From positions 224,001 through 288,000 of the forward strand of contig JBEKYR010000001.1 in NCBI GenBank assembly GCA_049510745.1: a DNA stretch of 64,000 nt, read 5' to 3'. This document shows, in pieces, positions 1-11,765 of this stretch; position 1 is the stretch's first letter; each line of letters opens with the position of its first letter. A model generated the notes under the pieces. It was given only the letters and a program-made list of their open reading frames with translations, was not told the origin of the DNA and did no database searches. A program made the translations under genes and the position numbers. This DNA is from Verrucomicrobiota bacterium. GTDB lineage: Bacteria; Verrucomicrobiota; Verrucomicrobiia; Limisphaerales; Palsa-1400.

Positions 1-1251
1 GCGCTGGCGAACAACTCCGACGGGCAGGGCCATTCTTACGGCAGCCACCTGAATTTTCTGGTCACGCGCCGCGCTTGGAGCGATTTGTTCGAGCGGCGGT
101 TGCAACATCTGCTCTTTCTTGCCGCCTACCAGGCCTCCAGCATCGTGTTTACAGGGCAGGGGAAAATCGGCGCCGAAAACAACCGTCCGCCGGTGCAGTA
201 CCAGATTTCGCAGCGGGCGGATTTCTTCGAGGTGTTAATGGGGCCGCAGACGACGTGGAACCGCCCCCTGATAAACAGTCGCGATGAGGCTTTATGTGGT
301 CCGTGGTATGGAGCCAGCGCGAGTCCAGACTCGGTAGAAAAGGCACGGTTGCACGTCATTTTCTATGACCAAACTCTTTGCCACACCGCCAGCCTGCTCA
401 AGGTCGGGGTGATGCAGATTATTCTCGCTATGATCGAGGCCGGAAGCGTTCGCACCAGCATCGTGCTTGATGATCCAGTTGAAGCGGTTTGGCAGTGGAG
501 CCACGACCCGACACTGCATTGCCGCGTGCGGCTGGCGGACGGCCGCAACCTCACCGCCGTCGAGTTGCAGATGCTGTTTTGGGAGGAGGCGCAGCGTTTT
601 GTCGCCAGCGGCGGCTGCACCGACATCGTGCCGGACGCGCCACACATCCTCGAACTCTGGTCAGACACACTGGGCGAACTGCGCGCGCGCGACTATGCCG
701 CACTGGCGCGCCGGCTGGATTGGGTCCTCAAACTGCAGATCCTCCAGCGCGCGCGACAGCAACGGCCCAATCTCACCTGGGCCTCGGCGGAGCTCAAACA
801 TTTGGACTTCATGTACGGCAGCCTCGAAGACGGACTGTACTGGGACCTCGAAAAAAACGGCCTGGTTAACGCTCTTGTCACCAGCGAAGAGATCGAACAC
901 TTCCGCAATGAACCGCCGGAAAACACACGCGCGTGGACCCGCGCGAGGTTGCTGCGCCTGGCCGAACCGCAGCAGATCGAGCGTGTGGACTGGGACAGCA
1001 TCACCTTTTCGCTCAAGGGCGACCATTACTGGCCGCGCGAAAGCACGGTCAATCTGACCAATCCGCTTGGCTTTACGCGAACTGCCTGCCAACGGGTCTT
1101 TCAGCTTTCGACTACCCTGGAGGAGGCGTCGGCCATGTTAAGCGCCAATCAGGACGGAACGGCAGCCATTTCGCCAACAAACGCAGCCGTGCAGGAACCA
1201 ATCCAAATTGAAGGAGATCACCATGAATCAACGCGAACGCCCCCAGCATGA
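1..1251 (+). CDS. Dop/PafA-family (Pup deamidase/ligase-like) protein, 5' end outside window
   Basis: Frame is open from base 1. Motifs NNSDGQGHSYGSHLNF, QISQRADFFE, RPLINSRDE, RLHVIFYD and LDWVLK match Dop/PafA motifs; QRADFFE is Dop-like. Confidence 0.85.
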   Translation, partial: ALANNSDGQGHSYGSHLNFLVTRRAWSDLFERRLQHLLFLAAYQASSIVFTGQGKIGAENNRPPVQYQISQRADFFEVLMGPQTTWNRPLINSRDEALCGPWYGASASPDSVEKARLHVIFYDQTLCHTASLLKVGVMQIILAMIEAGSVRTSIVLDDPVEAVWQWSHDPTLHCRVRLADGRNLTAVELQMLFWEEAQRFVASGGCTDIVPDAPHILELWSDTLGELRARDYAALARRLDWVLKLQILQRARQQRPNLTWASAELKHLDFMYGSLEDGLYWDLEKNGLVNALVTSEEIEHFRNEPPENTRAWTRARLLRLAEPQQIERVDWDSITFSLKGDHYWPRESTVNLTNPLGFTRTACQRVFQLSTTLEEASAMLSANQDGTAAISPTNAAVQEPIQIEGDHHESTRTPPA

Positions 1252-1426
1252 AAATCCATTCTCCGCCGCCCCCGGACCAGCAGGCGGTCCGGATGGAGCC
1301 AACTTAAACGCCATTCGTCAAACTGCCGCCGGCATGCTGGCCGCCGCCGATGAAGCAATCAGCCGCGTGCTTTCTGGCGACAGCCAGGCTTTCAACGCCG
1401 CCGCGCGGCAGGAGGGCGGACAGTAA
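1223..1426 (+). CDS. Pup-like small protein modifier, 67 aa, C-terminal GGQ
   Basis: AAGGAG RBS at 1211-1216, ATG at 1223, Pro/Gly-rich N-terminus, helical-looking middle and C-terminus ...FNAAARQEGGQ. Lies between two Dop/PafA-family genes. Confidence 0.85.
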   Translation: MNQRERPQHENPFSAAPGPAGGPDGANLNAIRQTAAGMLAAADEAISRVLSGDSQAFNAAARQEGGQ

Positions 1427-1446
1427 TATCGCGAGGAGGCACGGGT

Positions 1447-3864
1447 ATGGCGCAACGATTGTTCGGCATGGAAATCGAGTACGGCTGCGCGGCGCGCAGC
1501 CGCGATGCCGCGCGGACAGTTCGCAACCGTGACTGGGTGGGCGAGTTCATGAGAATCGCCTGCGAACGCCTGCCGCACCTGCCTTCGATGGAAGGCGGGG
1601 GAATTTTCCTCGAGAATGGAGCGCGGTTTTACGTGGATTGCTCGCATCCTGAAATGACCACGCCCGAGTGTTCCAATCCCTGGGACGTGGTCCGCTACAT
1701 GCAGGCTGGCGAAAAGATGTTGACTGCCGTCGCCGAGGAAATGCAGCGGCGGCAGCCCTCATTGGCCGAAGTGATGATCTTTAAAACCAACGTGGATCAT
1801 AGCGGCAGCGGCGCGACCTGGGGTTGCCACACCTCCTTTATGCATCTCGGAAACCCGGAGAAGTTCCCAGATCAAATCATTCCACATTTGGTCAGCCGGA
1901 TTGTTTATTCCGGCGCTGGCGGATTGGAGTTGGTGGATGGGCGTTTTCGTTTCACGCTCTCGCCGCGCGTCAGGTTTCTCGAACGTGAAGTTTCGCACAA
2001 CAGCACCAGCGAGCGTGGCATTTTCCATACGAAGGACGAAACGCTGGCCAACGAGGGATGTCATCGCCTGCACATTATCTGCGGGGAGAGCCTCTGCTCG
2101 GAAACCGCGCTCTGGCTGAACATGGGAGCGACGGCCGTGATCGTGGCGCTCATCGAGGCGGGCTTGCGCCCTGGTCAAGCCGTGCGTTTGCAGGATCCTT
2201 TGGGTGCCATGCGGCGCTTCTCCCTTGACCCCACCTGCCGGGCCGTGGCGCAGACCCTTGGCGGAAAGAAATTGAGCGCCGTGCAGATTCAGCGCCACTA
2301 CTTGGAAATTGCCCAGACGCACCTCGGCGCTCCCTTCATGCCGCCCTGGACGGACCAGGTTTGCATCCAATGGCGCGCAATGCTGGATCGTCTGGAAAAC
2401 GGGGCTCCCGGCTCCGTGGCCGCAACGCTGGATTGGGCCATGAAGTTGGGCCTGTTCCTGGATCGCGCAGAGCGGAGGGGGCTAGGCCCCCAACACTGGC
2501 ATCCCATCGGTCCGGCAGTGCTACAGGAACTCGATGGCGATGAACCCGGCCTCTGCGATGAAGCGCCAGCCTCCAAGAAACCCGCTTCCGCTTCTGCGGC
2601 GGTCTGCAAGGTTCACCAGGAACTCTGCGAGATAGACACCCGGTTCGCCCAACTCGGGGACAACGGCATCTTCGCCGCTTTGAGCCGGGCGGGAGTGTTG
2701 GCCCATCACTTGGCCGGGGTGGACAACATTGAGCACGCCCTGGCCAATCCACCGGCCATCGGCCGCGCGCGGTTGCGGGGTCTGTGCGTGCAGCGGTTCA
2801 AGGGCCAGAACCACCGCTACTCCTGTAGCTGGCGCAACGTCGTGGACCGCGAGAAAAACCTGTTGCTCGACCTTTCCGAGCCGTTTATCTCCGAGGAAAA
2901 ATGGCTGCCTGTGCCCGCGAGTTTTCGAGACCCGGACACCTCCATCCAAGGCCACTTGCGCCGGATATTAAGCGAGGCTCGCATGCGCCACGACCGCGGC
3001 GACCATGAGTCCGCCGCGGCGATTCTGCGCCAGATGGAAGGTTTCCAATCCGCCCTCGAATTGGAAAATCACTCGGAATATCTGCGATTGCGAGCTTGGA
3101 TCCAGAGTCGCAGAGGCTTCCTCGACAGCATACCCGCTCTCGATGCTTTGGCGCAGTCGGAGTTGATGACTCTCTCCCTCGCCAACTCATACGTGTGCGC
3201 CTACCGCTACCAGGGACTGATGCCGCCGCCGGCGATTGAGGCCTGGATCCGGCGCGGACGCGAATTCCTTTCTCCAAGACCCGATCGTTCTGACGGGGCC
3301 GCGTTGCCCTTCCTTGGACATTGGGGCTACTTCCTGCTGCGCAGCGGGCAGCCCTATGACGCGCTCCGCACGTTACATGATGCGTGCCAGCCCATCCGGC
3401 GGGAAAGCGCCAATCCCGCCGCCATCTCCCGGGCACTGGCGGACTACGGCGACGCCTGTCGCGCGGTTGGGCAACACTTCGAAGCCAAAGCCTTGCTCGA
3501 CGAAGCCCAAGCCATGCAGACGGAGCATCAACTCGAAGGGGACTTGTCGGACTTTGCCCTGACTCATCGCGCCAAACTTGAGACCCATTCTGAGCGCGCG
3601 TTGGAACTGCTTGCCCAGGCCAGGACCATTCAAACGCGCCTGGGAAACGTCATGGGGGAAACACGAACGCTGCTGTTGGAAGCCCGGTTCCTGCGCCATC
3701 GCACACTCACCGTGCAACATAAAGCACGCCTCCATGAACTGCGCGGAATGCGCCCGGCGCTTTCCCAGTGCCGGCTCTTTGGTAAAATCCTCGACAAATG
3801 GGAAGCCTGGACCAGCGGCGGCGCTGACCCGGACGGTGGAGGGGATACATTCTGGTGGCTGTGA
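1447..3864 (+). CDS. PafA-family Pup ligase-like protein with ~300 aa C-terminal TPR-like extension
   Basis: RLFGMEIEYG, FLENGARFYVDCSHPEMTTPEC, FKTNVD, WGCH, RLHIICGE and LDWAMK motifs; GAGGAGG RBS; helical repeat patterns in the C-terminal third. Confidence 0.85.
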   Translation: MAQRLFGMEIEYGCAARSRDAARTVRNRDWVGEFMRIACERLPHLPSMEGGGIFLENGARFYVDCSHPEMTTPECSNPWDVVRYMQAGEKMLTAVAEEMQRRQPSLAEVMIFKTNVDHSGSGATWGCHTSFMHLGNPEKFPDQIIPHLVSRIVYSGAGGLELVDGRFRFTLSPRVRFLEREVSHNSTSERGIFHTKDETLANEGCHRLHIICGESLCSETALWLNMGATAVIVALIEAGLRPGQAVRLQDPLGAMRRFSLDPTCRAVAQTLGGKKLSAVQIQRHYLEIAQTHLGAPFMPPWTDQVCIQWRAMLDRLENGAPGSVAATLDWAMKLGLFLDRAERRGLGPQHWHPIGPAVLQELDGDEPGLCDEAPASKKPASASAAVCKVHQELCEIDTRFAQLGDNGIFAALSRAGVLAHHLAGVDNIEHALANPPAIGRARLRGLCVQRFKGQNHRYSCSWRNVVDREKNLLLDLSEPFISEEKWLPVPASFRDPDTSIQGHLRRILSEARMRHDRGDHESAAAILRQMEGFQSALELENHSEYLRLRAWIQSRRGFLDSIPALDALAQSELMTLSLANSYVCAYRYQGLMPPPAIEAWIRRGREFLSPRPDRSDGAALPFLGHWGYFLLRSGQPYDALRTLHDACQPIRRESANPAAISRALADYGDACRAVGQHFEAKALLDEAQAMQTEHQLEGDLSDFALTHRAKLETHSERALELLAQARTIQTRLGNVMGETRTLLLEARFLRHRTLTVQHKARLHELRGMRPALSQCRLFGKILDKWEAWTSGGADPDGGGDTFWWL

Positions 3865-4101: not shown

Positions 4102-7100
4102 ATGAAACGTCTTCTTGCCGCTGGCGCCGCCCTATTGCTGCTGGGCTGCGATCTCCATCATAATCGCTCTGAACACGTCGAACTGATTCTCAATCCTTCC
4201 CCGGCTGTTCCCGCCACAACATTTGAACTGCGGTTTGACCAACCGATGGTGGGACCGGACAGAATCGGCCGTCCGGCGGAACCGTCGCCTCTGGTCATCA
4301 AGCCGGCCCTGGGCGGCGTCTTCACCTGGCTCAGCACGCGGAGTGGCACTTTTGTGCCGTCCGATCCCCTAGCGCTGGACCACCGATACAAACTATCACT
4401 GCGGTCCGGCTTGATGGGCGCGGACGGACGCCCCTCTCCGGCCGTCTTGCACGACCGCGTGGAAACGCCGCGGTTCTCGATGGTCGATTCGGCTCCCCGG
4501 CGGAACCAGGCGGATTTGAATTCGGAACAAATCGTGACGCTCGTTTTCAACGCGCCCGTGCGCGCCGCAGATTTGGCGCCGTATCTCGAATTCCGCGACG
4601 CCGGGGGTCAGCACCGGGCGGCTGAAATCCGGCAGGGCACCAACGAAGATATGCCTTGGGACTATCGGCGTTTGGATTTGCCGGCCAATCTCGTTTCCAA
4701 CTTGGTCTTGGCCGCGCCGCAAAAACCATTGCCGGTTGGCCAAGATTGGCGGTTGGTCCTTCGACCCGGTCTCCCCGCCGTCGAGAAGGGATTGCGCTTG
4801 CGCGCCCGCGACGAAATCCAATTGGGCGACGTCCATCCGTTTGTTTTCAAGGAAGCCATCGCGCATCATTTTATCGAAGGCGGCGCTTCAATTGTTCTCC
4901 AGTTTTCAAAGCCGGTTGCGCTGTCCTTGGGCGACAAATGGAACCGTTGGATTCACCTGGAGCCGATCGCATCCAATATCACGGCGGAGGCGGACGGCAA
5001 ATGTCTGACTTTGCAGGGCGATTTTCGAGGTGGAACCTGCTACCAGCTTGCCGTGAAAACCGGATTGCCTGCCGAGGAATCCTTCATCTTGGACGATGCC
5101 GCGTTGACCAACATCATCATGCCCGGCATTCCGCCGCGGCTCTATTTTTCGGCCTTTTCCGCGGATCAACAGGCGGTGGGACGGCGCCAGTTCCCCCTGC
5201 TGGCCGTGAACGTGCCGACCATCCGTCTTCGTGCCAAATTGCTGGAACCTGACGCGGCCATTCACGCTTTGCGCGGCTACGGCAGCTACTTCCGCTCCTG
5301 GCCTGATTATGACACCCACGGCGAGCGTTACCAGCGTGTCGATTATAATTTAATCGCCGGTCGAACGATCTTCGATGAAGAATTGGCCGGCACGCCACAA
5401 TCGGACATGGCCACCAACGTGATGCTGGACTGGGATCGGGTTTTGGGCGGGCGCAAAACCGGGGTCATTTTTGTCGAGGCCGAGCGCGCGGGCGAGCGTT
5501 CTGAATCCAGCCCGCGCCTGGGCACGCAGGCCCTGATGCAATTAACCGATCTCGGCGTGGCCTGGAAATCCGCCGCCGGGGAGTTGGATGCCTTTGTCTT
5601 TTCGCAAAGCACCGGAGAGCCTGCCACCGGCGCGGCCGTCCGATTGTTCGACGACGAGAACCAAGTGCTGCAAGAAGCGCTCACCGACGATCGAGGACTG
5701 GCGCATCTGCAATGCCCGAGCAACGCTCAATGGCTGGGGGCTGCGCTCGGACAGGACTTCCACGCCTTGAAAATCGAGGACCACGGCATCCCGCTTTACG
5801 GGTTCGATCTTCCGCAGTCCTGGGGCGGTGGAACCGCGAGCGCCCGGCCTGTGTTGATTTTCAGTGACCGCCAGTTTTACCGTCCGAATGAAACGCTCCA
5901 TCTCAAGGCGCTGGCGCGAGAATGGACGCGTGATGGTCTGGCTATTCCGTCCGAACTGGCCGGAACGCTGGAATGTTGTGACGCGCGGGGAAAATCGTTC
6001 TTTTCGAACAATGTCCACTTCAGCGGACGCGGTGCCTGCTCGGTCGATGTGCCCCTGCCGGCGGGGCCGTGCGGCGATTATGTCGCGCGCTTGCATCTGG
6101 GAGATTCGGGCGATTCGGTTTACGAGCACGCCTTCCAAGTCCAGGAACTCAAGCCGAACCCATTTGAAGTGACCGTGCAAGCCAAGCCCGAGTATGCAGC
6201 TGGTGACAAAGTGGAGATTCCCATATCGGCCCGTTATTACTTTGGCCAGCCGTTGTCCGCGGCGCGGGTGAAATGGACGTTGGAAGTGGATGAGAGCGGT
6301 TTCAAGCCTGCGGGCTTCGACTCATTCAGTTTTCTTCGAGCTTCGCCTGGATCGCATCTGGCCTTTTCCGGCGAGACGCGCATGTCCAACTCTCCCGTCT
6401 GCGTGATAAAGCCGGTAATGCCGTCGAATAATGCAGCGCCCGGCCCGCGCCGGATGTCGCTTCTAGTCGAGACGACCGACCTTGACCAGCAAACCGTTTC
6501 CAGCAGTGCGGAGTTCACCTGTCACAGCTCGGACTTTTACCTGGGCTTGTGCCAGACTGACTCGGTTTGGACCGCCGGCCAGGAATCGCCTCTGCAAATC
6601 GTCGCCGTCGGGGCCGACGGTCAGCCGTGGCCGCAACCGGTGGCCGCGCACTTGCAACTCCAGCGCGTGGATTGGGAGCCGGTGCGCGTGCAAGGCGCCG
6701 GCAGCACCCTCCGCTATCTCCCTCAATCCGCTTCTTCCAACGTGCTCGATCGCGACATTGAAATCCACGGGCTGACCAACCAGCTCCTGGCCGCCGCCGA
6801 GCCGGGACAATACGCGCTGGAGATTTCTGCCACGGACACACATGGACGCGCGGTGGCCACATCCCTTGAATTCTCCGTCTCCGCGCCCGGCAGCCTGGCT
6901 TGGAATTACCGCGACGAAGTCCGCATGGAACTCCAACCCGACCGTTCCGAATACGCACCCGGAGAAACGGCGCGAGTGCTGGTCAAGGCGCCTTTCAGCG
7001 GCATGGCGTGGGTCACGGTCGAACGCGACAAAGTGCTCCGCTCCTTCTCCGCGCAGTTGGACGGCAACGCGCCCGCGATTGAAATCCCCATCGGGCGTGG

Positions 7101-9528
7101 CGATTTGCCCAATGTTTTTGTCTCGGTCCTTCTGGCGCGCGGTTCCGAAAACTGCCCGAGGGAAGTCAAGGAGCCGGAATACCGCATCGGTTACTGCCAA
7201 CTGCCTGTGCGCAACCCGGCCAGCCGGCTCGCCGTGTCGGTCGTTTGTGCGGCCACGAATTATCTCCCCGCCCAACCAGTGGAGATTACGGTTAATGTCA
7301 ATTATATTTCAAACGCTCCCGTGGCCGGCGCGGAAGTGACCCTGTACGCAGTGGACGAGGGCATCCTCAGCCTGGGCGACCCTGGACTGCCCGATCCGGG
7401 CGCGATCTTTTATGCATCGCGTCCCTTGGAGGTCAGTTCCGCCATTTCCCTGGCGAACCTGCTGCCGGAGGATCTCGAACCGCGCCGGTTGGCCAACAAA
7501 GGTTACTTGGGCGGCGGTGGCGGCCGTTGCAATGTGCGCAAGAACTTCCTCGCCTGCGCGTTTTGGAACGCGACTTTGGTCACCGGCCCGCAAGGGTCGG
7601 TCACCGCCAGATTTCTTGCGCCCGATAGTATGACTCGCTATCGGGTCATGGCGGTCGCGCATTTGGACGACCGTTTCGGCTCTGGACAATCGGCCTTTGA
7701 AGTCAGCAAGCCGTTGCTGATTGAACCGGCCCTGCCGCAGTTCGCCCATGTCGGTGATCAACTCATCGCGCGCGCCGTGATTCACAACCAAAGCCACCAC
7801 TCAGGCGACGTTGTTGTGAAATTGGAACTGGATGACAAGGCGCAGGCCAAGGGCACAGAGAAACAGATTCAAATTGCCGCCGACGGCTCGAAGGTGGCCG
7901 AATTTCCCGTCACCTTCGCCGCCGCCGGGCCGGCGAAATGGATTTGGCGCGCTTGGTTTGCCGATGCGCCGCGCGAATTCACCGACGCCACCGAATGTTC
8001 GCTGGAGGTCGGTTACGTTTCGCCACTCTTGCATGAAACGTTCTGCGATACGGTCGAGGGATTCTCGACCAACTTGTTGGCCAAGGTGAACCCGCAGTTT
8101 CTGGCCGGAACCGGCACCGTGACCATCCGCGTCTCCAACACGCGCCTGAGCGAATTGGGCGAGGCCGTCTCGCAATTGCTGCATTATCCCTACGGCTGCG
8201 TCGAACAAACCGGTTCCAGTATGCTGCCGTGGATTGTATTGAGCGACGCGCCCGCGCTGCGTTCCGTCATGGGATGCCGTTCCAACGAGATCGCGCGCGC
8301 GATCAATTACGGCATTGAGCGGCTCTTTACGATGCAAACGCCCGGCGGCGGCTTGGGATACTGGCCGCACGCGCGCGAACCGATGCTCTGGGCCAGCGCG
8401 TATGGGGCCATGGTGTTGTCACTGGCCCAACAGCGCGGCTGGACGCTGCCCGAACCGGAATTCGACAATCTGCTTTCTGGTCTGAGCGCGCAACTGCGTG
8501 AACCGGGCGGCGGCGCAAGTTCGCTTTCCGACACCTGCCTGGCCCTTTACGCCCTGGCCCTGGCCGGGCGGGCAGAACCGGGTTACCACGAGAAAATCTT
8601 CTCCCGGCGCGGCGAGCTTTCGGCCGAGGACCGGGCGCTGTTGGCGCTGGCCATTCTGCAAGCCAACGGCCCGCCGAAAATGGCCAGGGAATTATTGACA
8701 ACAAACCAAACTTCCCGCCGCGCGGAGCCAGACGACTTCGATTGCCTGTCGCGCGAACAGGCCATCCTCCTCCTGGCCTGGATTCGATTGCAACCCGAAA
8801 GCCGGGAAGTGACATCCGGATTCGACGCGCTCATGCGCGAACAGCGCGAAGCCCATTGGGGCACGACCCAGGGCGACGCCTGGGCGCTGCTGGCTTTGAC
8901 GGAATACTCGCGCCGCGTCGAGGGCTCTCCCCAGTCCGCCGCCGGAGAACTGCGCTGGCGCGGCAAGGCCATTCCCTTCCAGCTTGACGCACGGACGTCT
9001 ACATTCGACAAGACATTCGATTTGACAGGAAATGCGGATTCGTCTCCTGCCATCCTGAATTCCTCGTTGCACCGCCTCTACGCCTCCGCCGCCTTCGAAA
9101 TCCGTCCGCCCGGCCCCGTGCAACCCCGACAAGACGAAGGCTTCGGACTACAGCGGAGCTATCAGCGTTTGGATGGGTATAACCAGCCTTGCTCGGGCGC
9201 ACTGACCGTCGGCGACCGCGTTTTGGTCACGCTCGAATTGTCGGCGCGGGAGGCGGCCCGATACATTGTAGTTGATGATTCGTTGCCGGCTATTCTGGAA
9301 CCAATTGGGGTCGGCGAGGAGCGGAACCGGATGTGGAGTTTTCATGAATTCCGCAAAGATCGCGCCTTGTTCTTCGCCAACGATTTGCCTGCCGGAAACT
9401 ACACGGTGCGCTATTGCGCTCGCGTGCGCGCGGCGGGCCAGGTCGGCGCTCCTTCGGGCAAGGTGGAGGAAATGTATCATCCGCAACGTTTCGGATTGAC
9501 CGGGACGCAAACCCTCGAGGGAAAATGA
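4102..9528 (+). CDS. Bacterial alpha-2-macroglobulin family lipoprotein
   Basis: 1808 aa, lipobox LLLGC, thioester motif YPYGCVEQ, DRQFYRPNETL MG-domain motif, C-terminal EEMYHP; directly upstream of pbpC. Confidence 0.93.
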   Translation: MKRLLAAGAALLLLGCDLHHNRSEHVELILNPSPAVPATTFELRFDQPMVGPDRIGRPAEPSPLVIKPALGGVFTWLSTRSGTFVPSDPLALDHRYKLSLRSGLMGADGRPSPAVLHDRVETPRFSMVDSAPRRNQADLNSEQIVTLVFNAPVRAADLAPYLEFRDAGGQHRAAEIRQGTNEDMPWDYRRLDLPANLVSNLVLAAPQKPLPVGQDWRLVLRPGLPAVEKGLRLRARDEIQLGDVHPFVFKEAIAHHFIEGGASIVLQFSKPVALSLGDKWNRWIHLEPIASNITAEADGKCLTLQGDFRGGTCYQLAVKTGLPAEESFILDDAALTNIIMPGIPPRLYFSAFSADQQAVGRRQFPLLAVNVPTIRLRAKLLEPDAAIHALRGYGSYFRSWPDYDTHGERYQRVDYNLIAGRTIFDEELAGTPQSDMATNVMLDWDRVLGGRKTGVIFVEAERAGERSESSPRLGTQALMQLTDLGVAWKSAAGELDAFVFSQSTGEPATGAAVRLFDDENQVLQEALTDDRGLAHLQCPSNAQWLGAALGQDFHALKIEDHGIPLYGFDLPQSWGGGTASARPVLIFSDRQFYRPNETLHLKALAREWTRDGLAIPSELAGTLECCDARGKSFFSNNVHFSGRGACSVDVPLPAGPCGDYVARLHLGDSGDSVYEHAFQVQELKPNPFEVTVQAKPEYAAGDKVEIPISARYYFGQPLSAARVKWTLEVDESGFKPAGFDSFSFLRASPGSHLAFSGETRMSNSPVCVIKPVMPSNNAAPGPRRMSLLVETTDLDQQTVSSSAEFTCHSSDFYLGLCQTDSVWTAGQESPLQIVAVGADGQPWPQPVAAHLQLQRVDWEPVRVQGAGSTLRYLPQSASSNVLDRDIEIHGLTNQLLAAAEPGQYALEISATDTHGRAVATSLEFSVSAPGSLAWNYRDEVRMELQPDRSEYAPGETARVLVKAPFSGMAWVTVERDKVLRSFSAQLDGNAPAIEIPIGRGDLPNVFVSVLLARGSENCPREVKEPEYRIGYCQLPVRNPASRLAVSVVCAATNYLPAQPVEITVNVNYISNAPVAGAEVTLYAVDEGILSLGDPGLPDPGAIFYASRPLEVSSAISLANLLPEDLEPRRLANKGYLGGGGGRCNVRKNFLACAFWNATLVTGPQGSVTARFLAPDSMTRYRVMAVAHLDDRFGSGQSAFEVSKPLLIEPALPQFAHVGDQLIARAVIHNQSHHSGDVVVKLELDDKAQAKGTEKQIQIAADGSKVAEFPVTFAAAGPAKWIWRAWFADAPREFTDATECSLEVGYVSPLLHETFCDTVEGFSTNLLAKVNPQFLAGTGTVTIRVSNTRLSELGEAVSQLLHYPYGCVEQTGSSMLPWIVLSDAPALRSVMGCRSNEIARAINYGIERLFTMQTPGGGLGYWPHAREPMLWASAYGAMVLSLAQQRGWTLPEPEFDNLLSGLSAQLREPGGGASSLSDTCLALYALALAGRAEPGYHEKIFSRRGELSAEDRALLALAILQANGPPKMARELLTTNQTSRRAEPDDFDCLSREQAILLLAWIRLQPESREVTSGFDALMREQREAHWGTTQGDAWALLALTEYSRRVEGSPQSAAGELRWRGKAIPFQLDARTSTFDKTFDLTGNADSSPAILNSSLHRLYASAAFEIRPPGPVQPRQDEGFGLQRSYQRLDGYNQPCSGALTVGDRVLVTLELSAREAARYIVVDDSLPAILEPIGVGEERNRMWSFHEFRKDRALFFANDLPAGNYTVRYCARVRAAGQVGAPSGKVEEMYHPQRFGLTGTQTLEGK

Positions 9529-11765
9529 AAAGACGGCGATTCTTCGTTGGGCTGGGCGTGATGATATTGGTGATCCTGAGCGGGCCGATCCTGGTCTCCT
9601 TCGTGCCCTTACCGCCGGCCTTGTTCACCCCTCCCCGTCCAGCCGTCGAGTTGTTGGACCGGAACGGAGAGCCACTGCGCCTGACCCGCGACGGCGACCG
9701 CCCTTTTCAGCAATATGCTGGGCTGTCGGAAATGCCCCAGGCGCTGGTCAGTGCAACGCTGGCGGCCGAGGACAGCCGGTTTTGGAGTCATCATGGCGTG
9801 GATTGGCGGGCGGACTTGCGCGCCGGTTGGCAATTGATTTGGAACCGGCGCATCATCTCAGGAGCTTCGACCATCACGCAGCAGTTGATCAAGTTAAGCG
9901 CGCCGCGGCCGCGGACGTTCAAGGCCAAAATCATCGAGACAGCGCAGGCGTTGCGCCTGGAGCAAATCTGGGACAAGCAGCGGATTTTGACCGAGTACCT
10001 GAATCGGGTTGATTACGGCAACTACAACTGCGGCTGTGTGGCGGCGGCCCAATTCTACTTCGCCAAACCGCCGCGCGATTTGAGCACGGCCGAGTGCGCG
10101 TTGCTGGCCGGATTGCCGCAGTCCCCATCGCGATTGAATCCGCGCACGCATTTCGCCCGCGCCCTTCGCCGACAAGTTTGGATTCTGACGCGCATGAACA
10201 AGGAGGGTTGGCTGGCCGCTGATGAATTCCAACGGGCTTTGCAGGAGCCGCTACGCCTGGCTCATGGCGGCCGCGTCTTCGAGGCACCCCATTTTGTGGA
10301 TTTGCTGTTAGAACAGGGAGGCGTGGCGGCGGGCAATTCCAGCGTCCGCACCACGCTGGACCTGCGTCTCAATCGCTTCGCCGGGCAAATCCTGCGTCGG
10401 CAGCTTGGCGCGTTGCAGGCCGAACACGCCGGCGAGGGCGCCATTGTGGTCATCGAAAATCAAACCGGCAACCTGCTCGCCCTGGTTGGATCGCGCGATT
10501 ATTTTTCGGCGCAGTCCGGGCAAGTCGATGGCGCCTTGGCGCCACGCTCAACCGGATCGGCGTTGAAACCGTTCCTGTACTGGCTGGCGTTCGAACGGGG
10601 CGCGACGCCCGCCTCCATCGTGCCCGATGTTCCAACGGATTTTGCCACCAGCACCGGCTTGTTCTCGCCTGTCAACTATGATCGCCATTGTTACGGCCCC
10701 GTGCGCTATCGCGTGGCCCTGGCCAATTCGCTCAACATTTCGGCGGTGAAGATTCTTGATTCGTTGGGTGGAGCGGGGCCGCTGCTTGATTTGCTGCGGC
10801 GCTGCCGTCTCTCCACGCTGACCCGTGCGGACAACAACTATGGACTCGGTCTTGCCATCGGCAACGCGGAAGCGCGCCTGCTCGAACTGGCCAATGCCTA
10901 CGCCAGCCTGGCCCGTTTGGGCGTCTGTCGGCCGTACCGCCTACTGCCATCCGCAGACAGCCAGAACGCCGGCGAGCGCGTTGGCGACGCTGACGCCGCA
11001 TGGCTGATCGCCGACATTCTGAGTGACAATGACGCCCGTGCGGCCGCTTTCGGCCCGGAATCCTCATTGCGTTTTGATTTTCCAGTGGCCTGCAAAACGG
11101 GCACCAGTTCGAATTTCCGGGACAATTGGGCCTTTGGTTACACGCCGGAATTCACCGTGGGAATTTGGGTGGGGAATTTTGACGGCTCGCCCATGCGGCA
11201 CATCTCCGGCGTCACAGGCGCGGCGCCCATTCTGCACGATCTCTTCGATTATCTGCATTCCCAATACGGCACAACTTGGTATGCCCGCCCCGCAGACATC
11301 GTGGAACGTAGGATCGATCCTCTCAGAGGCAATCTCTCCTCCAAACAAGATGCTGTCAGCGAAAGATTCATGGCCACTGTCCTGCCACCTGCAAACAGGG
11401 CCGACGACTACGACGACGCTGGGTGTGTCCGCCTTGGCCCGGAATATCGGCAATGGCTGGCCAGCGCGGACAATTGGCTGGCTGGCCGGGCCGTCTTGCG
11501 CGAAACTGGGCAAGACCTGCGCGTCACATTCCCGTTGCCCGGCACCATTCTCTTTCTCGACCCTGACCTTCCGGACCACGGTCGCCGGCTCTATCTGACC
11601 AGCCAGGGGACGGACGAGGCCGAGTGGTCCAGCGATTCTCTGGAGTGCCTCCGGCAAGGCGATCGGAGTCTGGCCCTCCTGGCATTGGGCCAGCACGAAT
11701 TGACCGTGCGCGACCCGCGCACCGGCGCCACGCGGCAAACCTGGATCGAAGTCAAAGAACGGTGA
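9525..11765 (+). CDS. pbpC: Penicillin-binding protein 1C (transglycosylase/transpeptidase)
   Basis: ATGA overlap with the A2M stop; AEDSRFWSHHGVD, GASTITQQL, SALK, SLN and KTGTS motifs; canonical A2M-pbpC pairing. Confidence 0.92.
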   Translation: MKRRRFFVGLGVMILVILSGPILVSFVPLPPALFTPPRPAVELLDRNGEPLRLTRDGDRPFQQYAGLSEMPQALVSATLAAEDSRFWSHHGVDWRADLRAGWQLIWNRRIISGASTITQQLIKLSAPRPRTFKAKIIETAQALRLEQIWDKQRILTEYLNRVDYGNYNCGCVAAAQFYFAKPPRDLSTAECALLAGLPQSPSRLNPRTHFARALRRQVWILTRMNKEGWLAADEFQRALQEPLRLAHGGRVFEAPHFVDLLLEQGGVAAGNSSVRTTLDLRLNRFAGQILRRQLGALQAEHAGEGAIVVIENQTGNLLALVGSRDYFSAQSGQVDGALAPRSTGSALKPFLYWLAFERGATPASIVPDVPTDFATSTGLFSPVNYDRHCYGPVRYRVALANSLNISAVKILDSLGGAGPLLDLLRRCRLSTLTRADNNYGLGLAIGNAEARLLELANAYASLARLGVCRPYRLLPSADSQNAGERVGDADAAWLIADILSDNDARAAAFGPESSLRFDFPVACKTGTSSNFRDNWAFGYTPEFTVGIWVGNFDGSPMRHISGVTGAAPILHDLFDYLHSQYGTTWYARPADIVERRIDPLRGNLSSKQDAVSERFMATVLPPANRADDYDDAGCVRLGPEYRQWLASADNWLAGRAVLRETGQDLRVTFPLPGTILFLDPDLPDHGRRLYLTSQGTDEAEWSSDSLECLRQGDRSLALLALGQHELTVRDPRTGATRQTWIEVKER

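Follow-up and report, generated by a model that had tools for sequence, protein, structure and literature searches.

Divergent Pup-type tagging genes share an operon with a predicted ubiquitin-like cascade in a Verrucomicrobiota bacterium

Introduction

Several described bacterial protein-tagging systems resemble the one considered here, a Pup-type system whose modifier and two enzymes are encoded at positions 1 to 3,864 of a 64,000-nucleotide stretch of a Verrucomicrobiota bacterium (assembly GCA_049510745.1, contig JBEKYR010000001.1, positions 224,001 to 288,000, forward strand; the whole stretch is called the window). In actinobacteria, the Pup-proteasome system comprises Mpa/ARC, Dop, Pup, PrcB, PrcA and PafA. 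The UBact-proteasome system of Gram-negative bacteria is defined by a modifier with the C-terminus R[ST]G[EQ]. Burroughs and colleagues reportedly described, in 2011, prokaryotic tri-ligase systems built around a ubiquitin-like protein (Ubl) and comprising Prok-RING_1, E1, E2, JAB and Ubl.

Iyer et al. (2008; PMC2588565) found Pup outside the actinobacteria, together with membrane-anchored, proteasome-less ligases in Plesiocystis and Rhodopirellula, and C. glutamicum, in a proteasome-less form of the system, puts Pup and ARC to non-degradative use on bacterioferritin (PMC12288473). Closest to our locus is one sentence in Kaur et al. (2020, eLife; PMC7159879), which notes that some Thermofonsia and Planctomycetes couple Ubl conjugation to that of Pup. 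As there, the locus described below joins a bacterial Ubl, E1, E2, RING and JAB to Pup conjugation, and planctomycete loci are among those that we find; unlike our analysis, the sentence comes without gene order, ARC, the YbjN protein, enzyme divergence or a proteasome census. The ten-gene operon is not described in the available portions of Iyer et al. (2008; PMC2588565), nor in those of PMC11601603, PMC8223512, PMC11354881 and PMC8195603, and that of the paper on Bil/Bub operons contains no occurrence of Pup, AAA or proteasome. A full-text literature search, which reached few subscription journals, returned no dedicated description or experimental test of the Ubl-Pup pairing. In the literature searched, Pup-type tagging within a dual-tag operon is mentioned once in print and otherwise undissected.

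Results

The window cuts into a ten-gene operon

The window opens inside a Dop-like gene, gene 1, whose last 416 codons form an open frame cut by the window edge (1-1251, + strand). The entire gene lies on the + strand at G000:C1:223497-225251, where G000 is the host genome, C1 the contig with the operon, and window position equals C1 position minus 224000; it encodes 584-587 aa and starts about 503 bases upstream of the window. Its 3' end overlaps the 5' end of the gene for a divergent Pup (1223-1426, +), a 67-aa protein with an ATG start that is free of lysine and ends RQEGGQ, and also contains the ribosome-binding site and spacer of that gene (1209-1222, +; GAAGGAG). The PafA-like gene 3 (1447-3864, +; 805 aa) starts 20 bases past the Pup gene. 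It consists of a catalytic domain (1447-2916, +), putatively a Pup ligase, and a C-terminal extension (2917-3864, +, boundary approximate) that we call TPR-like from a TPR_12 match at E 0.006, which is below the cut-off, and from language-model features (0.92). These coordinates, and matches to PF03136 (Pup_ligase) of 313 bits for gene 1 and 288 bits for gene 3 (cut-off 25), agree with a previous sequence-only reading of the window, in which two Dop/PafA-family genes tightly flank the small RQEGGQ protein. The small gene is more than a chance frame, since its substitutions relative to three relatives are biased to third codon positions (15/22, 19/29 and 30/50) and a Pup homologue follows the Dop-like gene in 125 of the 127 loci with sufficient downstream DNA. 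Scans for promoters (1 against 2.6 in shuffles) and terminators (13 against 14.4) were not above shuffles.

A larger operon is truncated by the window edge, and the three genes are its 3' end. Seven further tightly spaced genes on the same (+) strand precede them outside the window (C1 217281-223483), encoding an FHA-like plus Prok-RING_1 protein (217281-217817), a ThiF-type E1 (217819-219003), an E2-like protein (219000-219536), a 293-aa tandem YbjN/type III chaperone-fold protein (219533-220414), a 98-aa beta-grasp Ubl (220411-220707), a JAB peptidase (220729-221835) and an ARC/Mpa-like ATPase (221807-223483). The sequence-only reading had noted no 20S or ARC gene between or downstream of the three genes. 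None lies there in the window, and the absence of ARC is an effect of the window edge, as the ARC/Mpa-like gene lies upstream, 13 bases separating its end from the gene 1 ATG.

Judged by its sequence, the upstream set is a complete ubiquitin-like cascade (E1, E2, RING, JAB and beta-grasp Ubl) with its catalytic residues present, so that the three window genes share their operon with a second predicted tagging system, which lay beyond the view of the earlier reading. Catalytic and metal residues are kept in 76-79 of 80 E1 proteins and in 104-105 of 105 JAB proteins. The RING domain matches Prok-RING_1 in 54 of 60 family members, with its zinc ligands kept (Cys in 59-60 of 60, His in 52 of 60), and the N-terminal part of the same protein is FHA-like at the level of a lead. 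Searched against PDB, the E2-like profile hit 15 sequences at E<=1, each weakly (best E 0.025), 14 of them E2s, and an invariant Cys105 stands in register with these matches; the hits, though weak one by one, agree with each other and are consistent with an E2. The Ubl models as a beta-grasp like SUMO, ISG15 and ubiquitin (pLDDT 88). It carries [IV]xAG in 103 of 104 open reading frames (ORFs), terminal in 40 and followed by a mostly short tail in the rest, as would be expected if JAB trims it. In its structure model, the 293-aa protein has two domains of the YbjN/type III chaperone fold (pLDDT 91.5; best Z 9.4, rmsd 2.9, 127 aligned), the second better supported than the first. In the ARC-like ATPase, a proteasomal OB domain (PF16450) is joined to an AAA domain with Walker A/B and an aromatic pore loop retained, and a coiled coil was judged by eye from the alignment; its best NCBIfam hit is pup_AAA, and it scores 246 bits with TIGR03689 (cut-off 505). 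Separate E1, E2, RING and JAB and a single beta-grasp Ubl are also found in tri-ligase systems and Bil/Bub operons, from which the operon differs in its FHA-like RING, its tandem YbjN protein and its linkage to ARC, Dop, Pup and PafA.

The modifier aligns with Pup and not with UBact

The sequence-only reading had seen little resemblance between the 67-aa protein and Pup apart from the GGQ end, which is wrong at the level of the family. At 67 aa and with its GGQ end, the protein lies within the 50-90 residues and C-terminal G[EQ] typical of Pup. The six best PDB hits of the modifier family profile are all Pup (best E 6e-4), and hhalign aligns the family with an actinobacterial Pup at E 1.2e-5 over 32 ungapped columns, the homology lying in the C-terminal helix and tail. 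With PF05639, 7 of 71 members give weak hits (E<=0.1), the window protein not being among them. Unlike UBact, by the motif that we take to define it, 0 of 143 modifier ORFs end in R[ST]G[QE], and hhalign against the host's own UBact gave no match (probability 0.8%). Because the family finds Pup in PDB, aligns with an actinobacterial Pup and does not match the host UBact, the modifier is, on this sequence evidence, a remote true Pup and not a UBact.

The C-terminus is G[QE] in 140 of 143 ORFs and GG[QE] in 122 (these counts of 143 Pup, 104 Ubl and 156 ARC ORFs include the host copy). Since the last residue is Q in 94 and E in 49, both deamidase-dependent and ligation-ready modifiers occur. In contrast to the one actinobacterial Pup compared (charge -13), the modifier is near neutral (median -2), and 39 of 71 members are lysine-free. 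A charge reversal between Pup and the coiled coil of ARC was not seen, both being near neutral. Lysine depletion of the entire operon was considered and rejected: the nine other host operon proteins contain 1.7-3.8% Lys against about 3.2% in long host ORFs, and only Pup (0/67) stands out.

Two divergent enzymes with Dop-like and PafA-like loops

The two enzymes deviate from canonical motifs as the earlier reading had quoted, with GSHLNF at 40-57, GCHTSF at 1822-1839 and HTKDETLA at 2026-2049; the deviations spare the metal ligands and the catalytic Asp. The residue labels 156, 157, 205, 221, 225, 227, 239, 433 and 453 follow a numbering that we take to be correct. Residue lists came from PMC8599861 and PMC7947786 and were mapped through the Dop of Nonomuraea, which stood in for Acidothermus numbering. 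The six Mg ligands of Dop named in PMC8599861 are invariant in 136/136 Dop-like and 102/102 PafA-like sequences, with Asp at position 8 (Glu8) in all 136 Dop-like ones, and the catalytic Asp is kept in 136/136 and 101/102. This GS-fold active site is shared with the actinobacterial enzymes. The two families also carry substitutions of their own. Dop-like proteins have Cys at position 101 in 123 of 136 and an invariant Cys270, and PafA-like proteins have replaced Arg227 by Lys (93/102), Asn157 by Ser (94/102) and Asn225 by His (96/102). The T of GCHTSF is peculiar to the host branch; 93 of 102 PafA-like members have E there.

The loops of the enzymes separate the two families. The spacer at the Dop-loop measures 46-127 residues in the Dop-like family (median 79; reference Dops 76-82) and 38-48 in the PafA-like family (reference PafAs 38-52). 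In gene 1, the insert matches the Dop-loop in length (85) but not in sequence, and the alpha-loop is Dop-type (F/E/G/T); gene 3 has a spacer of 45 and no Dop-loop. The alpha-loop of the PafA-like family is mostly PafA-type, with His in 80/102 and Ser in 93/102; gene 3 itself has Phe at the PafA His site, and the [HQ]x[NH] motif of Iyer et al. (2008; PMC2588565) reads HxS. These loop features point to gene 1 as the Dop (deamidase/depupylase) and to gene 3 as the ligase. Genome G408 has an additional, stand-alone Pup that ends GGE and lies beside a long PafA-like gene homologous to gene 3 (L243:7535-10051). The 16 kb covered there contain no Dop-like gene, one being present elsewhere in the same genome; such a pairing agrees with a ligase role for gene 3.

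We built two quick trees (53 and 28 rows) subsampled from the 136 Dop-like and 102 PafA-like sequences, with the Dop and PafA groups of the host phylum and one actinobacterial Dop and one PafA as canonical references. Each operon family forms its own long-stemmed branch with support 100, outside the canonical Dop and PafA references used, which bears out the earlier view of a non-canonical Pup-type system. The host's own Dop and PafA are just 33% and 36% identical to gene 1, and both operon enzymes branch apart from them. Gene 1 scores 272 bits with the Dop model TIGR03688 (cut-off 492) and 217 with the PafA model TIGR03686. Assigning the Dop and ligase roles by phylogeny failed, the deep branch order being unsettled. 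Both enzymes align to Dop/PafA without the four-helix membrane insert that follows strand 4 in the ligases of Plesiocystis and Rhodopirellula (PMC2588565). Like the operon, those ligases occur with Pup, outside the actinobacteria and in the absence of proteasome genes; they differ in having a membrane-protein neighbour, whereas the enzymes here are paired and accompanied by ARC.

PafA-like proteins fall into short forms (<580 aa) and long forms that carry a C-terminal extension. The extension of gene 3, TPR-like as noted above, has homologues in 22 of 34 other long PafA-like ORFs and may bind substrates or partners. Gene 3 ends in a conserved D-x-[FY]-W-[GW]-[LV] tail (window 3847-3864), a possible docking motif. 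At one locus (L145:9111-16354), three tandem long PafA-like genes (776-819 aa) follow a single Pup, suggesting diversification of the ligase. The insert at the Dop-loop position of gene 1 (C1 ~223690-223710) contains CxCxxC, also present in the consensus of the query alignment, and may be a metal site.

The ten-gene order recurs across several phyla

No relative was found when the genome collection was scanned with a single protein; a scan with an alignment of 51 gene-1 sequences (the host's and 50 hand-picked from 120 listed) did find relatives. It retrieved 229 stretches from genomes and 396 from metagenomes, and we retained the 80 best of each kind. The loci are not all independent, as some of the genomes are related and some metagenome loci repeat genome loci; one locus (L033, from the unpublished genome G402) is a single row in several counts, with no claim resting on it. 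Order was counted where a locus extended 8 kb or more upstream and 2 kb or more downstream, 31 genome and 59 metagenome loci being too short. The exact order RING-E1-E2-YbjN-Ubl-JAB-ARC-Dop-Pup-PafA is found in 39 of 49 genome loci and 18 of 21 metagenome loci. Among the other genome loci, one has this order plus an additional PafA-like gene, five have no same-strand PafA-like gene in the locus (an inverted copy in three), two lack E1/E2/Ubl/JAB, one lacks RING/E1, and one consists of Dop-Pup-PafA alone. ARC stands directly upstream of the Dop-like gene in 76/77 genome and 54/55 metagenome loci. The order arc-dop-pup-pafA is that of actinobacteria; the operon differs in lacking prcBA and in its TPR-fused ligase, its ubiquitin cascade, and enzymes that score far below equivalog cut-offs and form separate clades.

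Record titles place the loci in Acidobacteriota, Verrucomicrobiota, Planctomycetota, Gemmatimonadota, Armatimonadota, Binatia, Eisenbacteria and others; most belong to the first five, in contrast to the Thermofonsia and Planctomycetes that alone are named by Kaur et al. (2020). Across loci, the operon proteins have median identities of 32-53% to the host proteins. The closest named relatives of gene 1 among the matches listed are from Verrucomicrobia (71% identity), and searches for the operon Dop-like gene in 30 other genomes of the host family and in 400 sampled genomes of the phylum found none. The gene-3 subfamily is large, its best 150 clusters (at 50% identity) all scoring E<1e-101. A pattern search of viral contigs for the Dop-like family gave 41 pattern matches, none confirmed as a homologue; the Pup alignment has no segment of sufficient conservation for such a pattern. 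A close operon homologue on a 6-kb contig labelled Bifidobacteriaceae (L032) groups with the host in the tree and is possibly mis-binned.

Proteasome genes are rare in operon-bearing genomes

The sequence-only reading had proposed possible independence from the proteasome. A census of 50 of the 80 operon-bearing genomes found prcB in one (130 bits) and prcA in the same one (1/50; the prcA set differs by one genome from the prcB set), counts that are limited by the 50 being metagenome-assembled genomes of unreported completeness. The same prcB search found the gene in 26 of 30 genomes of the host family, 27 of which have Dop or PafA. The single operon genome with prcB and prcA also has its own canonical Dop and PafA; four others gave weak prcB hits (<=36 bits) that we do not count as proteasomes. 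With prcB and prcA each in 1/50 against 26/30 in the control, the operon system is probably proteasome-independent at the level of the family. The earlier proposal holds for the family, although not for the reason given.

The host is the exception. It shares with UBact-carrying bacteria homologues of Dop, PafA and ARC in a Gram-negative background, and in fact has a separate UBact-type system on other contigs: a 56-aa tag ending RTGQ with prcB, prcA and pafA (G000:C5:125312-128460, -) and arc-dop (G000:C30:31206-34746, +). On C1 there are no 20S genes, the PF00227 hits of the host being only on C5, C12 and C24. Two of these hits are stand-alone genes outside the prcBA locus (G000:C24:32979-33971, 330 aa; G000:C12:88506-89366, 286 aa), the former adjoining what by eye is a transposase-like gene. 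The earlier reading had named, as one refutation of its proposal, enzymes nested in the canonical clades with arc and prcAB directly upstream; arc does lie directly upstream of gene 1, prcBA lies elsewhere, and the enzymes branch outside the canonical references used.

The C-terminal proteasome-docking motif of Mpa/ARC is GQYL (PMC8223512), and its penultimate Tyr is present in 0 of 156 ARC-like ORFs, a further difference from actinobacteria. Because the UBact-type ARCs that we saw also lack GQYL, its loss is weak evidence for independence from the proteasome.

Operon variants bearing on a possible link between the two arms

Three planctomycete loci (L042, L050 and L063) read RING-YbjN-ARC-Dop-Pup-PafA, without E1, E2, Ubl and JAB. 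Neither the E2 nor the Ubl of the family was found elsewhere in these three genomes, and a control genome scored. The RING proteins of the reduced operons have intact zinc ligands. As RING and YbjN are retained without E2 or Ubl, their job appears independent of these two, which suggests that RING and YbjN serve the Pup arm too and hints that the arms share a substrate selector. Displaced genes also occur: four Acidobacteriota have no RING at the locus (two with 10 kb upstream, two on short contigs) and a RING elsewhere in the genome, which in one genome is displaced together with E1 by about 40 kb.

One planctomycete (G445) has Dop-Pup-PafA genes that stand without a ubiquitin arm and a further, distant Pup-ligase homologue (L242:4357-6147). 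The same planctomycete contains related clusters of the Ubl-E1-JAB-RING-E2 type (L239:7750-13042, L240:203-2479 and L230).

An eleventh gene, ClpB/ClpC-D1-like, lies near the Pup arm in 47 loci (L097:13348-14589 and 46 others). It encodes an uncharacterised N-terminal domain of about 130 aa and one ATPase module with a degraded Walker B. It accompanies 29 of 51 short PafA-like genes, 0 of 21 long ones next to Pup and 4 of 5 intermediate ones; this tally leaves aside loci with <1.3 kb downstream or a displaced or inverted PafA-like gene, among which L084, L089, L093 and L149 combine a longer PafA-like ORF with the ClpB-like gene. Since long forms cluster by lineage, the association is a lead and not a test. 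The host, whose gene 3 is of the long form, has no orthologue (best hits 24-27%).

Surroundings of the operon

A probable winged-helix regulator precedes the operon (C1 216513-217115, L001:7513-8115, +; PF00486 at E 3.5e-4; 54 ORF hits), and before it lies a divergent 363-aa gene with no Pfam hit and no assigned function (C1 215144-216235, L001:6144-7235, -; 7 ORF hits in 161 loci). Downstream, the window holds an alpha-2-macroglobulin and PbpC-type pair (4102-11765) and glycoside hydrolases and esterases (12980-36029; GH95, GH43, GH10, GH67, fucosidase), which have no relation to the operon. The flanks of the five relatives compared are not syntenic, so that no clean insertion site could be delimited. 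Neighbours that recur around loci L031-L190 are WD40-repeat proteins (18 loci), SorC-type sugar-binding regulators (16 and 11) and sigma-54 activators (14). In a peat metatranscriptome, contigs of relatives (85-99% alike) cover parts of the E2 to PafA-like genes. We do not count them as evidence of expression, because they also cover a neighbouring gene, leave RING/E1 uncovered and carry no strand information.

Discussion

The three window genes apparently form a divergent, intact-looking bacterial tagging kit, with a Pup tag, a likely ligase and a likely remover. We think it probable, with real room for doubt, that they are the Pup arm of an accessory operon that holds two unrelated tagging chemistries and works by a Dop/ligase/ARC disassembly scheme. 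We infer every activity in this scheme, the Dop and ligase assignments, the targets and the biological role. Gene 1 would deamidate Pup-GGQ to GGE and strip and recycle the tag from targets, gene 3, with its TPR extension, would use ATP to join the terminal glutamate of Pup to target lysines, and an ARC-like hexamer would bind the tag, unfold the target and free it. The outcome would be disassembly or inactivation of a complex and not degradation by 20S, comparable to ferritin in Corynebacterium, for which the proteasome-less form of the system sets the precedent (PMC12288473). In the other arm, JAB would trim the Ubl, E1 activate it, and E2 and RING conjugate it; this arm appears co-inherited and probably acts in the same process, with FHA-RING and tandem YbjN perhaps selecting substrates for both. 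The scattered occurrence of the operon suggests that it is an accessory system serving in stress or conflict.

Several observations weigh against this account. Gene 3 scores 208 bits with the PafA model TIGR03686 (cut-off 551) and slightly higher with the Dop model, and its Phe208 and Ser452 are of the Dop type. The Dop-like family has PafA-type Asp452 in 116/136, has lost the His95 of Dop and has Cys for the nucleotide-binding Arg90 in 128/136. Sister relations of the two families to Dop and PafA have support 78 in one tree and <=61 in the other, and duplication within the operon is not rejected (p-AU 0.37). In the second region of homology, the host ARC retains a single arginine, and the same holds for at least 18 of the 71 ARC-like proteins aligned. 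The reduced planctomycete operons may reflect a single loss event, two of them being sisters in the tree. The host locus is no defence island, its neighbours being alpha-2-macroglobulin, PbpC and glycan enzymes, and PADLOC (2023 library) gives generic E1, JAB and AAA hits only, none for Dop-like, Pup or PafA-like.

The Pup tag could instead be a degradation signal, with the ARC-like motor feeding the host 20S proteasome or another protease elsewhere. The intact prcB and prcA next to UBact and pafA in the host would allow this, most ARC family members have a Tyr/Phe-hydrophobic pair near the C-terminus, Kaur et al. (2020; PMC7159879) take Ubl-Pup coupling to support target degradation, and the ClpB/ClpC-D1-like gene of 47 loci could be read the same way. 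We consider it unlikely, as 20S genes occur in just one of the 50 operon genomes, the ClpB-like protein has a single ATPase domain with its Walker B degraded, and, JAB aside, no peptidase family recurs widely around the operon (an M50 peptidase family is present at 5 loci). A similarly slim chance is given to enzyme roles outside the textbook, in which both enzymes ligate, the two form a heterodimer, or the cysteines of gene 1 accept, for example, Ubl from E2. The Asp at position 8 and the cysteines at 90, 101 and 270 in the Dop-like family, the replacements at 227, 157 and 225 in the PafA-like family and the unsettled deep branching of both would all fit such roles. Against them, the 94 modifiers that end in Gln need a deamidase, loop length and alpha-loop set the families apart in the Dop/PafA direction, and gene-1 homologues from operons without E1, E2 and Ubl nest inside the same family.

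It is less far-fetched, yet doubtful, that the two arms are independent modules under a common promoter, neither needing the other. The Pup arm does persist without E1/E2/Ubl/JAB in three planctomycetes and as Dop-Pup-PafA alone at one locus, a Ubl-E1-JAB-RING-E2 cluster (L239) has no Pup genes in the 20 kb covered, and one genome has its RING and E1 about 40 kb away. Set against this are a ten-gene order kept identical over several phyla at the low identities given above, and RING and YbjN, which sit among the ubiquitin genes yet stay with the Pup arm after the others are lost. At the other extreme, both arms might form one pathway in which a shared adaptor of FHA-RING and tandem YbjN chooses a protein to be marked with both Ubl and Pup, either next to each other or in series, and the ARC-like motor extracts this protein from an assembly, for example a phage or stress-induced complex, without a proteasome. 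We offer this only tentatively, as a possibility that more probably fails than holds. Dual-tag extraction by Cdc48/p97 is an analogue, and if the one-pathway idea were true, the operon would be a bacterial counterpart of it, assembled from two independently evolved modifier systems.

The significance of the operon is tempered by the earlier mention of the pairing in print and by the precedent for proteasome-less pupylation. Pupylation and ubiquitin-type conjugation evolved separately and have been studied separately, and a dual operon of fixed order in several phyla, mostly in genomes where no proteasome genes were found, opens two matters to experiment: what follows the tag in bacterial Ubl conjugation, and to what extent Pup and ARC work without degradation. 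In a host with two Pup-ligase systems, cross-talk is testable within one genome, and a divergent, lysine-free Pup with its own ligase could be an orthogonal pair for proximity labelling.

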